Source: Escherichia coli
Lineage (GTDB): Bacteria > Pseudomonadota > Gammaproteobacteria > Enterobacterales > Enterobacteriaceae
Length of the DNA: 64,000 nucleotides
NCBI RefSeq assembly: GCF_030013595.1
Contig: NZ_CP122768.1
Strand: one strand, 5' to 3'
Shown: positions 1,440-42,331 of the stretch, piece after piece
How the letters are laid out: each line of letters begins with the position of its first letter
Position numbering within the stretch: position 1 is the stretch's first letter
Notes under the pieces: model-generated
Told to the model about the DNA's origin: nothing
Databases searched by the model: none
What the model saw: the letters and a program-made list of their open reading frames with translations, nothing else
Program-made: the position numbers and the translations under genes

Positions 1440-2219
1440 ATGCAAACCATCACCATCGCCCCACCCAAGCGCAGCTGGTTCTCGCTTCTGAGCTGGGCCA
1501 TTGTTCTCGCCGTGCTGGTCGTCTCGTGGCAGGGCGCGGAAATGGCCCCGCTCACGCTGATTAAAGACGGCGGCAACATGGCAACCTTCGCCGCCGACTT
1601 CTTCCCGCCCGATTTCAGCCAGTGGCAGGATTACCTCACCGAAATGGCCGTCACGCTGCAAATCGCCGTCTGGGGCACCGCGCTGGCGGTGGTTCTCTCC
1701 ATCCCCTTCGGTCTGATGAGCGCCGAAAACCTAGTGCCGTGGTGGGTTTACCAGCCCGTACGCCGCCTGATGGACGCCTGCCGCGCCATTAACGAAATGG
1801 TCTTCGCCATGCTGTTCGTGGTCGCCGTCGGCCTTGGCCCGTTCGCTGGCGTGCTGGCGCTGTTTATCCACACCACCGGCGTGCTCTCCAAACTGCTTTC
1901 CGAAGCGGTAGAAGCAATTGAACCCGGCCCGGTGGAAGGTATTCGCGCCACCGGTGCCAACAAGCTCGAAGAGATCCTCTACGGCGTGCTGCCGCAGGTG
2001 ATGCCGCTGCTGATCTCCTACTCCCTCTATCGCTTCGAATCCAACGTCCGTTCGGCCACCGTTGTTGGCATGGTCGGCGCTGGCGGGATCGGCGTCACCC
2101 TGTGGGAAGCGATTCGCGGTTTCCAGTTCCAGCAAACCTGCGCCCTGATGGTGCTGATTATCGTCACGGTCAGCCTGCTGGATTTCCTCTCTCAACGGTT
2201 GCGTAAGCACTTTATCTGA
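1440..2219 (+). CDS. phnE: Phosphonate ABC transporter permease, intact reading frame
   Basis: Uninterrupted 259 aa ORF with multiple hydrophobic segments; synteny between phnD and phnF. Confidence 0.88.
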
Positions 2220-38894: not shown

Positions 38895-39289
38895 AAGAAA
38901 ACATCCCCTGAGAGTTTAATTTTCGTCAAGATGCGTGGCGGACAATCCCCTGCCAGCGAAACGTTATCTTCCTGCTCCAGGTTTGCGACAAATTGGTGCG
39001 TCGCAAAAAAGCAAACGTTTAGCTCCGCGCATACAAAACGGGTGGTAAAAAAAGCAAACGATTATCCGGCGATCATAGCGGCTTTTTCAACCGAAGTTTG
39101 CTGCTTTTTTCTCTTTTATTGTCTTGACGATGAAAAACCAGGCAATTGATGCGCAAACGTTATCGTCGATGCGCAAGATTGCAGCGTTATCGAGCCATAT
39201 ACCGTTCAGGATTGCGATAAAAAATCGTCTGAGATGACAAAAATATTGCGGCTAAAAAGTGTACTTTTACTCTGGCGAAGAAACGCCGG

Positions 39290-39450
39290 TGACATACAAT
39301 TAAAGCATCAACACCAACCGGAACCTCCACCACGTGCTCGAATGAGGTGTGTTGACGTCGGGGGAAACCCTCCTGTGTACCAGCGGGATAGAGAGAAAGA
39401 CAAAGACCGGAAAACAAACTAAAGCGCCCTTGTGGCGCTTTAGTTTTGTT
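39290..39450 (+). ncRNA. ryjA: Candidate small RNA (ryjA position) ending at a terminator hairpin that overlaps the soxR 3' end
   Basis: Strong hairpin aaactaaagcgcc / ggcgctttagttt at 39416..39446 followed by T-rich tract; remembered ryjA location between soxR and ghxP; 5' boundary is a guess. Confidence 0.35.
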
Positions 39451-39904
39451 CATCTTCCAGCAAGCGTGCGCCTGTGCCTTCTTCTCCTAAGCGGTCGCCC
39501 GGGTTACGCAATGGGCAATCACTGCGTGAAAGGCAGCCACAACCAATACATCCGTCCAGCTCGTCACGCAGCGCCACTAAGGTATGAATGCGTCGATCCA
39601 ACTCTTCTCGCCATTGGGACGAAAGCTGTTTCCACTCTTTCGCACTTAATGTATGCCCTTCGGGCAACACGCCAAATGCTTCACGAATGGTCGCCAGCGG
39701 AATGCCAATACGCTGAGCAATTTTGATGATTGCGACATATCGCAACACATCACGTTTATATCGCCGCTGATTGCCACTATTACGGATACTGCTAATCAAC
39801 CCTTTGCTTTCATAGAAATGCAGCGCCGATACCGCCACACCGCTGCGTTTTGCCACTTCGCCGGGGGTTAGCAGCGCTTTAATGCGGGGTAATTTCTTTT
39901 CCAT
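39440..39904 (-). CDS. soxR: Redox-sensing MerR-family regulator SoxR ([2Fe-2S])
   Basis: 154 aa ORF; C-terminal cysteine cluster [12 protein letters not shown]. Confidence 0.95.
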
Positions 39905-39915
39905 AAATCGCTTTA

Positions 39916-39933
39916 CCTCAAGTTAACTTGAGG
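39916..39933. promoter_or_regulatory. SoxR operator, perfect 18-bp palindrome in the soxS promoter spacer
   Basis: cctcaagttaacttgagg between divergent soxR and soxS. Confidence 0.85.
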
Positions 39934-39989
39934 AATTATACTCCCCAACAGATGAATTAACGAACTGAACACTGAAAAGAGGCAGATTT

Positions 39990-40315: not shown

Positions 40316-41902
40316 TTATTGCCCGCGCGTTAACTCCCGCGCGGGTAATTGCTCCATCCATTGCATAAACACCTGCGGCGGCATCGCCTTCGCAAAGAAC
40401 CATCCCTGACAATAGCGCACGCCGCGTTTGCGCAGCCAGTTAACCTGCTCCTCAGTTTCGACGCCTTCAGCGATCGTTTTTAACCCCAGACTGTGCGCCA
40501 GCTCGATGATGTGTTCCGCAATCAAATGACTGGTTTTATGGGTGGTCAGCGTCTCAACAAACGATTTATCGATTTTCAAAATATCGACATTCAATGATTT
40601 AAGGTTATGCAAGTTAGAGTAGCCAATACCAAAATCATCAATTGCCACTTCGTAACCAGCCTGGCGGAAAGCCAGAATAATTGGTGTCATTTTGTCGACA
40701 TCAAGAAATGCATGTTCAGTCACTTCAAATTTAATTTGCTGCGGACGCACCGCATATTGCTCTGTTTTCTGGTTGGTTCGCGCTATCAACCGTGACGTAT
40801 GAAAATCGGAGGCCGACAGGTTAATAGAAACATAGCGATCGACATGTGTTGCCAGGTACACGCCCAGATCGCGGAAGACATTATCAATAACATAATCAGT
40901 TATCTGTTCGATCATCCCCTCCTTTTCTGCCAGCGGAATAAACTCTGCCGGATTCATTACTTGCCCCTGCTCACCAGGCCAACGTAACAATGCTTCAGCT
41001 CCGATACATTTTTCTGTTTTGATATCGATTATTGGCTGGTAATAAAGGCAAAGTTGATGTTTTTCGAGGGCGCGTTGCAATTTGCGTTTGGGAGACAAAT
41101 AGTTTTGTCGAATACGTAGCCAGAGTAATAACAGAACAATACTCCCCAAAATACCGGCGGGTAACGCAAAAATAAGATGATTATAAAAATGCGCTATAAG
41201 ACGTTGATATGAAGTCGCAACAATGGCTGCAATTGGGCGTTTTGTCGAATAAACTGTCGCATATAAATAGCCATTTCTTTGTACGGTTAAATTATTCAAA
41301 TGAATCAGTGGAGAAAACGTTGCTGCCGAGGCCTCGTTGCTTAACGAGAAAAAGGTTTTCGTTACCGTATCATACACACCCCATTGCAATGTCGGATCAT
41401 CAGACATCACTTCACTCCAGAAGAGAGGGTTGATGACCACCACATAATTTCCCCGCTGCATATAGGTCATTTTATAGCCAGAGAAAAAAGGCGTATCGCG
41501 GTAATAATAGATAGAAACGTTAGGTTCACGCTTATAATCGGCCGGTGCAATCGTATAGCCGTTTACAGGCGCTATCAGCGATGAGCATAAAAAATGGTTA
41601 TCACGGGCATAGATCAATTCATTAATATAAAGATAGCCACGAATAATATTCAACATTCGCTTTTGATGGGCTGGAGTGCAAACTTGCCCCTGATAGCGTT
41701 CAGCTGCATCGCTCACTAAATCTGCCTGGCGAATGACCAGCTCGGATTTATCCAGCGCCAACTGAGCAAAAGTTTGGAGCTGACTATTCACTTCTGATTT
41801 TGCCCAAAGGAAGGCAATCCATAGCGACAGAATGATGGGAAAGAGAACTAAAAAGATAATGCCCGGCAACGCCAGTAATTGGTGTCGTGCATGATGACTC
41901 AT
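40316..41902 (-). CDS. pdeC: Membrane-anchored c-di-GMP phosphodiesterase (CSS-motif sensor plus EAL domain)
   Basis: 528 aa from MSHHARHQ; two TM segments flanking a periplasmic domain; C-terminal EAL-type region. Confidence 0.85.
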
Positions 41903-42331
41903 TGCTATCAATTTCCTGCCTGTTTATACCCGGTCATTGCAAGGTGAAAACCCTGGTAACCGACGTCTTTAGATAAATCTTACGGTATAAATAGCACTTT
42001 TGCCTGATTTGAAATTGATACCTTTTTAATCGTCACCTGAATAAAAATAATTCATTGATATTCAAAACTAATTTCCTACAGGAATGCAGAGGCGGTGGGA
42101 AGATATCCCCTTAATGCCGCTGAAAAAACACATAATCTGTACGGCAATAAAAGTCACGGCCTAATCTGGCTAACAAACAATCAATTGTGATATAGTTCAC
42201 AAAATTAATGAAACAAACAGAGTGTTTCTTTTTTGTGTTCTGCAAGCCCCGCGATAGCCAGATTGTATCACGCCTCCCGTGAACAACGCCGCGCTGTCCG
42301 AGGCATCGGCTCTTTTCAGAGGAATTGTTTG

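Follow-up and report, generated by a model that had tools for sequence, protein, structure and literature searches.

The SoxR operator and the soxS promoter have been known since the early 1990s. SoxR binds its operator in both redox states, and only the oxidised [2Fe-2S] form activates soxS (PMC8063818, PMC4411124, PMC8113463). Promoters activated by MerR-family regulators typically have an over-long spacer of 19 bp, which the activator remodels (PMC8113463). SoxR is also known to repress its own gene in E. coli (PMC4411124). The small RNA SraL, or RyjA, was described in 2001, and its targets were published in 2013 (PMC3753932) and 2019 (reviewed in PMC6582626). It is expressed as an Hfq-binding RNA of about 140 nt (PMC3753932), and its detection by Northern blotting in E. 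coli is attributed to Argaman 2001 and Wassarman 2001, as cited in PMC3753932. In Salmonella, the sraL promoter is bound in vivo by RpoS, and an rpoS mutant no longer expresses the RNA, which peaks in stationary phase and is stabilised by Hfq (PMC3753932). There, the 5' part of SraL pairs with the tig leader just 5' of the Shine-Dalgarno sequence, so that less trigger factor is made; compensatory mutations proved this pairing (PMC3753932). According to the review of the later work, SraL also pairs with the rho leader, preventing premature Rho-dependent termination (Silva 2019, reviewed in PMC6582626).

Here, we examined positions 39290-39989 of a 64-kb window (the whole stretch of E. coli DNA that was analysed), starting 17 nt 5' of the sRNA 5' end, in its -10 region, and ending with the base that directly precedes the soxS ATG. 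This region is almost certainly the canonical E. coli soxRS control region together with the sRNA gene sraL (ryjA). The operator, the soxS promoter and SraL/RyjA are all already known, and there is nothing new at the locus. Between 38.9 and 40.3 kb, the order is ghxP, sraL/ryjA, soxR, a divergent control region of 85 bp, soxS and pdeC, which is the order found in K-12 MG1655 (pdeC-soxS-soxR-ryjA-ghxP); ghxP is followed on the sraL side by a 412-bp intergenic region. A 1421-bp query over the locus matched 5425 of the 5426 complete E. coli genomes, with a coverage of at least 80% in 5419, and the best match (99.9% identity) carries annotated soxR, soxS and pdeC. The encoded SoxR protein scored 247.6 bits against NCBIfam TIGR01950 (cut-off 116.9) and aligned from end to end with the SoxR chain of PDB 2ZHG/2ZHH, of which 2ZHG is the SoxR-DNA complex; its C-terminal four-cysteine [2Fe-2S] motif is encoded beside the operator. 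SoxS scored 228 bits against NCBIfam NF007584 (cut-off 174). Relative to K-12, the soxR coding sequence has about 20 nucleotide differences and the protein is 99% identical. The coordinates of the features are collected in Table 1.

Table 1. Features of the ghxP-pdeC interval, in coordinates of the window.
Feature	Position	Strand	Basis or remark
ghxP	37545..38894	minus	
sraL -35-like element CTGGCGAA	39272..39279	plus	17-bp spacer to the -10; role inferred from position
sraL -10 TACAAT, then TAA	39295..39300, 39301..39303	plus	sigma-S-type feature
sraL/ryjA sRNA gene, 141 nt	39307..39447	plus	Rfam RF01408; identity with K-12 ryjA
SraL stem-loop 1	39308..39355	plus	outer stem nt 2-7/44-49, inner stem nt 18-21/38-41
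Candidate tig-pairing region, SraL nt 24-35 CCACGUGCUCGA	39330..39341	plus	predicted duplex
SraL central domain	39357..39401	plus	closing stem nt 51-53/93-95; hairpin GGGGGAAACCC; hairpin nt 65-70/77-82
SraL A/G-rich stretch AUAGAGAGAAAGACAAAGACCG	39389..39410	plus	mostly unpaired in the consensus fold; GAC nt 93-95 pair
Hairpin common to sraL (plus) and soxR (minus)	39416..39446	both	intrinsic terminator of SraL, probable terminator of soxR
soxR CDS, 154 aa, [2Fe-2S] cysteine motif	39440..39904	minus	
soxS -35 hexamer TTTACC	39912..39917	plus	shares 2 bases with the box start
SoxR operator, 18-bp perfect palindrome CCTCAAGTTAACTTGAGG	39916..39933	both	equals the published SoxR box
Candidate soxR -10, perfect TATAAT	39935..39940	minus	overlaps the soxS -10; read from sequence
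soxS -10 hexamer TATACT	39937..39942	plus	starts three bases past the box
soxS CDS, 107 aa	39990..40313	plus	
pdeC	40316..41911	minus	

The sequence-only reading of this DNA had taken a perfect 18-bp palindrome in the soxR-soxS spacer for the SoxR operator of the soxS promoter. Its exact position and perfect symmetry were borne out, and so was its assignment: the palindrome matches the published E. coli SoxR box at 18 of 18 positions (PMC4411124), and it lies between the -35 and -10 hexamers, occupying the 19-bp spacer that can be read directly between TTTACC and TATACT. The outcome that the reading had named as its own refutation, a palindrome placed outside such a spacer, was thus not observed. 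The box is unique in the 64-kb window, even when up to 3 mismatches are allowed, and did not occur in any of 100 dinucleotide-preserving shuffles of the window. From the soxR ATG to the soxS ATG, the intergenic sequence is identical to that of K-12, with the same box, hexamers and 19-bp spacer, so that no difference between the two control regions was found. A simple sigma-70 promoter scan called neither the soxS nor the sraL promoter, as would be expected of a promoter with a 19-bp spacer and of a sigma-S promoter whose -35 is weak.

A scan for the exact box over 100,044 species genomes returned at least 120 loci, and 90 of the matches listed have an adjoining soxR homologue. Since these loci were chosen by an exact match, the invariance of the box among them holds by construction; the register of the flanking -35 and -10 elements is, unlike box invariance, independent evidence. 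Among the matches listed, TTTA or TTGA immediately precedes the box in 89 of the 90 soxR-adjacent loci, so that the -35 reads TTTACC or TTGACC, and a -10-like hexamer (mostly TAnnnT, in a few loci CAnnnT) follows three bases after the box in nearly all 90. This register was kept across several phyla, even where SoxR is only 37% identical, among the matches listed. The listed matches include about 60 Enterobacterales loci, in which the 31-nt core TTTACCTCAAGTTAACTTGAGGAATTATACT is invariant but for one substitution and soxS was detected beside the box in nearly all.

The exact box was also present in listed loci where tblastn found no SoxR homologue in the fetched DNA (L004, L018-L020, L024, L027, L038, L039, L042, L051, L063, L069, L072, L076, L085, L086, L094, L097, L102, L104, L110, L111, L115 and L119). 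They include Streptomyces, Nonomuraea, Vibrio, a Flavobacteriaceae MAG, Bombilactobacillus and a Candidatus Berkelbacteria MAG. These could be target promoters of the SoxR regulon distant from soxR, or loci truncated before soxR.

On the other side of the operator, the soxR ATG (39904) is separated from the box by only 11 nt, and the soxR transcript must therefore begin within or beyond the box. The minus strand carries a perfect TATAAT, read from 39940 to 39935, in a stretch that is invariant in the soxS-bearing loci among the matches listed. This hexamer may serve as the soxR -10, which would put the soxR start inside the SoxR box, in agreement with the reported autorepression of SoxR (PMC4411124). 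The start sites of both soxS and soxR are predicted placements, taken from the positions of the hexamers. The mechanism of soxS activation was established for the K-12 sequence, which is identical to the operator here (PMC8063818, PMC4411124). A SoxR dimer, a MerR-family protein with a [2Fe-2S] centre, would bind the palindrome and fill the over-long soxS spacer, and in its reduced form would keep the geometry of the soxS promoter unfavourable. Upon oxidation, SoxR would untwist and shorten the spacer, allowing sigma-70 RNA polymerase to open the promoter; SoxS would then be produced and switch on its regulon. SoxR bound to the box would also cover the start of the divergent soxR transcript and repress soxR.

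Beyond the 3' end of soxR, the sequence-only reading had noted a hairpin that fitted the position of ryjA, and it had considered the 5' end of the sRNA impossible to set from the sequence alone. The assignment to ryjA held. The Rfam sraL model (RF01408) matched over its entire length (positions 1-142 of 142) with 153.3 bits, against a gathering threshold of 39, and E = 2.8e-36, and the sole other match of this model was the terminator on the reverse strand (23.7 bits, below threshold). The sRNA is 100% identical to, and co-linear with, the annotated K-12 ncRNA ryjA (b4459, 4277926..4278066), which lies at the homologous position and overlaps the 3' end of soxR by 8 nt. As the ends of ryjA annotated in K-12 correspond to 39307 and 39447, homology settles what had been left open and gives 39307 as the 5' end, 7 nt past the conserved -10 box. 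Identity with K-12 is 100% from the -10 box through the terminator, and the two strains share the strand of the gene, its overlap of 8 nt with soxR, and the -10 box together with the TAA behind it; 5' of the -10, four substitutions distinguish them (39253, 39262, 39272 and 39287). The upstream neighbour of sraL in Salmonella is STM4267, versus ghxP here (PMC3753932).

The same reading had considered that the hairpin, which it described as overlapping the soxR stop and having a T-tract on the plus strand, fits a bidirectional terminator. The geometry proved right: two arms of 13 nt (39416..39428 and 39434..39446), 100% complementary, enclose a 5-nt loop, the 3' arm takes in the stop codon of soxR (TAA, complement of 39440..39442), and the plus-strand tail after the stem, TTTTGTTCATCTT, passed the terminator scan. 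RNA folding, which had been proposed as a check, gave a strong fold on both strands, with -20.5 kcal/mol (z = -6.5) on the plus strand and -22.2 kcal/mol (z = -5.2) on the minus strand; in either case none of 200 shuffles was as good. As in bidirectional intrinsic terminators, a single perfect GC-cored hairpin lies between an A-tract and a T-tract, flanks that lengthen the stem on both strands and thus make a stem followed by U residues possible in both directions. The site differs from such terminators in that the U-tract on the soxR side is short (GUUUUCC): the minus-strand tail, GTTTTCCGG, has only 4 T in the scan window, and no terminator was called there. Bidirectional termination thus stands as a prediction, well favoured by synteny and by the energy with which either strand folds but weakened by the U-tract on the soxR side. 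The SraL transcript would end at this hairpin, and most likely the hairpin, read on the minus strand, also terminates soxR, considering fold energy and synteny.

Homologues of sraL were sought by blastn and with our own covariance model (R1) in the fetched SoxR-box loci among the matches listed. They were found in 28 loci, all Enterobacteriaceae, in genera including Escherichia, Citrobacter, Leclercia, Lelliottia, Silvania, Pseudocitrobacter, Cedecea, Kosakonia, Phytobacter and Mangrovibacter. Outside this family, the covariance model detected no credible sraL beside soxR in 62 loci. Neither method found a credible sraL in the soxRS loci of Erwiniaceae (Pantoea, Erwinia, Tatumella, Rosenbergiella and Mixta; for example L005, L007, L030, L040, L056, L066 and L082). 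A 22.5-bit match in a Pantoea locus (L062), 4 kb from soxR, was set aside as probably due to chance. Within Enterobacteriaceae, seven loci with enough flanking DNA gave no sraL (L011, L013, L048, L057, L100, L113 and L121). The loci lacking sraL still carry soxR, soxS and the invariant operator core, and the distribution of sraL is therefore narrower than that of soxS among the loci examined. In Pluralibacter, sraL is present in sp. UBA7423 (L079) and was not found in P. gergoviae (L048, L121).

In all 28 loci, sraL is convergent with soxR. The distance from its 3' end to the soxR stop ranges from -8 to +34 nt in 22 loci and from 84 to 937 nt in five; in the remaining one, sraL could not be placed relative to the stop because the computed stop was unreliable. 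The largest gap, 937 nt in Enterobacter sp. ENT03 (L080:12580-13516), contains ORFs of 183 aa and 131 aa between soxR and sraL, an insertion from which it follows that tail-to-tail contact of the two genes is not obligatory. In another Enterobacter locus, that of sp. Cy-643 (L117), part of the terminator is present a second time (1612..1636), beside the soxR stop and at a distance of 185 nt from the 3' end of sraL.

The constancy of this arrangement raises the idea that SraL also acts in cis on soxR, coupling sigma-S activity to the level of soxR mRNA. We regard this as improbable, and the same judgement covers jointly the two routes by which it might operate, transcriptional interference and RNase III cleavage of a duplex formed from the common hairpin. 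In its favour are the 28 convergent pairs, 22 of them with ends that overlap or lie no more than 34 nt apart, and the complementarity of the SraL and soxR RNAs over about 35 to 40 nt if soxR ends at the common hairpin. On the other hand, E. coli has an annotated overlap of just 8 nt and most genera have none, and the insertions that separate the genes in the five loci with longer gaps argue against a required overlap. Moreover, each of the two RNAs has its 3' end tied up in a very stable hairpin, no such effect was found in the papers examined, and the synteny may arise merely from two genes using one terminator. The related proposal that the convergent arrangement itself is functional, with SraL transcription or pairing of the 3' hairpins tuning the level or termination of soxR mRNA, appears if anything slightly less probable still.

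The conservation of sraL within the 28 loci bears on whether the region is an RNA gene. Upstream of the RNA, the -10 reads TA(C/G)A(C/A)T at -12..-7, with T-12 in 26, A-11 in 27, A-9 in 28 and T-7 in 28 of the 28 loci, and the TAA at -6..-4 is found, position by position, in 23, 27 and 21 of them. A purine stands at +1 in every locus, and a -35-like CTGGC(G/A)AA occurs at -35..-28 in most. The first base of this element (39272) is C here and A in K-12, C being the majority base in other genera. These promoter features are those described as typical of RpoS-dependent promoters (Silva et al. 2013, PMC3753932). Thus, sraL appears to have its own sigma-S-type promoter, conserved in the 28 loci, which would drive transcription of the 141-nt Hfq-binding sRNA.

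The RNA itself shows conservation of structure. In an alignment of 27 sequences, the consensus fold agrees with that of Rfam, and compensatory double changes occur at 7 of its 35 pairs. These are mainly in the outer stem (nt 1-7/44-50), where, for example, A-U is replaced by G-C in 5 sequences and G-C by A-U in 11; by RNAalifold, four outer-stem pairs of stem-loop 1 have changed in a compensatory manner in between 3 and 11 of the 27 sequences. Stem-loop 1 encloses the invariant stretch ACCGGAACCUCC. In the central domain, the RNAalifold and Rfam structures agree. This domain and the A/G-rich stretch are nearly invariant and leave little or no covariation to be seen; AUAGAGAGAAAGACAAAGACCG is invariant or at least 90% conserved in the 27 sequences, and one may conjecture a role for it in Hfq binding or target pairing. 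Taken as a single sequence, the whole of SraL has only a modest advantage in folding over shuffles (z = -1.9), and 6 of 200 shuffles did as well. Two copies, in Cedecea neteri (L093:410-574) and in Enterobacter sp. Cy-643 (L117:1305-1469), are 165 nt long, with about 25 extra nt in the apical part of stem-loop 1.

The same alignment speaks to the idea that the plus strand encodes a small protein, which we consider very unlikely and have rejected. Two ORFs do exist, one of 62 aa (39234..39422) and an inner one of 26 codons with its ATG at 39342, the latter wholly inside the sRNA and ending at a UAA in the terminator stem. However, the longer ORF begins upstream of the conserved sraL promoter and +1, the inner ATG is not conserved, being CTG, TTG, CCG or absent in most homologues, the frame is broken by loop-length indels of 1 to 3 nt, and conservation is even over the three codon positions, with the third not relaxed. 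That the hairpin is nothing but the soxR terminator, preceded by 110 nt of plain intergenic DNA and no sRNA gene, has a negligible chance of being right: the weak reverse-strand match of the hairpin alone (23.7 bits) shows that a palindromic terminator can mimic part of the sraL family, but here the match extends over all 142 model positions and reaches 153 bits, conservation is far stronger in the 110 nt 5' of the hairpin than at the adjoining third-codon positions of soxR, the stems carry compensatory changes, a conserved promoter stands at the right distance, and the ncRNA is annotated in K-12 and reported as detected on Northern blots in E. coli (PMC3753932).

With sraL read as an sRNA gene, its targets in E. 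coli may be those of Salmonella, to judge by analogy. A windowed 22-nt duplex scan placed SraL nt 24-35 against positions -30..-18 of E. coli tig (-16.4 kcal/mol), immediately 5' of the Shine-Dalgarno sequence, and this predicted pairing fits the published description of the site (PMC3753932); nt 24-35 would thus be the part of SraL that pairs with tig. The same scan returned several candidate sites in the E. coli rho leader. RNAduplex runs of whole-length SraL against the tig and rho leaders gave nothing better than shuffles, of which 69 of 300 (tig) and 286 of 300 (rho) were as good, and these whole-length results are giant-loop artefacts. If E. coli follows Salmonella, SraL would pair with the tig leader, resulting in less trigger factor, and would protect the rho leader.

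Between ghxP and sraL, we observed several sites that resemble PurR boxes. At 39151..39166, GCGCAAACGTTATCGT reads on the opposite strand as the PurR motif ACGATAACGTTTGCGC, which a ChIP-chip study reported for the intergenic region 'ryjA/yjcD' (PMC3159470). Nearer to ghxP lie three weaker PurR-box-like copies with GCAAACG/GAAACG cores (38955..38970, 39009..39024 and 39052..39067). Two weaker copies fall within a 17-nt direct repeat, AAAAAAGCAAACG(T/A)TTA, and the copy at 39052..39067 overlaps the sole sigma-70-like site for ghxP returned by the promoter scan (minus strand, 39090..39061).

The value of this analysis lies in annotation: it places the SoxR operator, the soxS promoter, sraL/ryjA with its 5' end at 39307, and the hairpin that the sRNA has in common with soxR. 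In the closest RefSeq strain (L002, NZ_CM149870.1), ghxP, soxR, soxS and pdeC are annotated and no ncRNA is given at the position of sraL, so that users of that annotation miss the sRNA. The comparison also yielded two small by-products. The -35/box/-10 register of SoxR-controlled promoters is unchanged over many phyla among the matches listed, and, among the loci examined, sraL occurs only in Enterobacteriaceae and always tail-to-tail with soxR. Should the improbable tuning of soxR in cis by SraL prove true, it would couple the superoxide sensor to the response of the cell to stationary phase.
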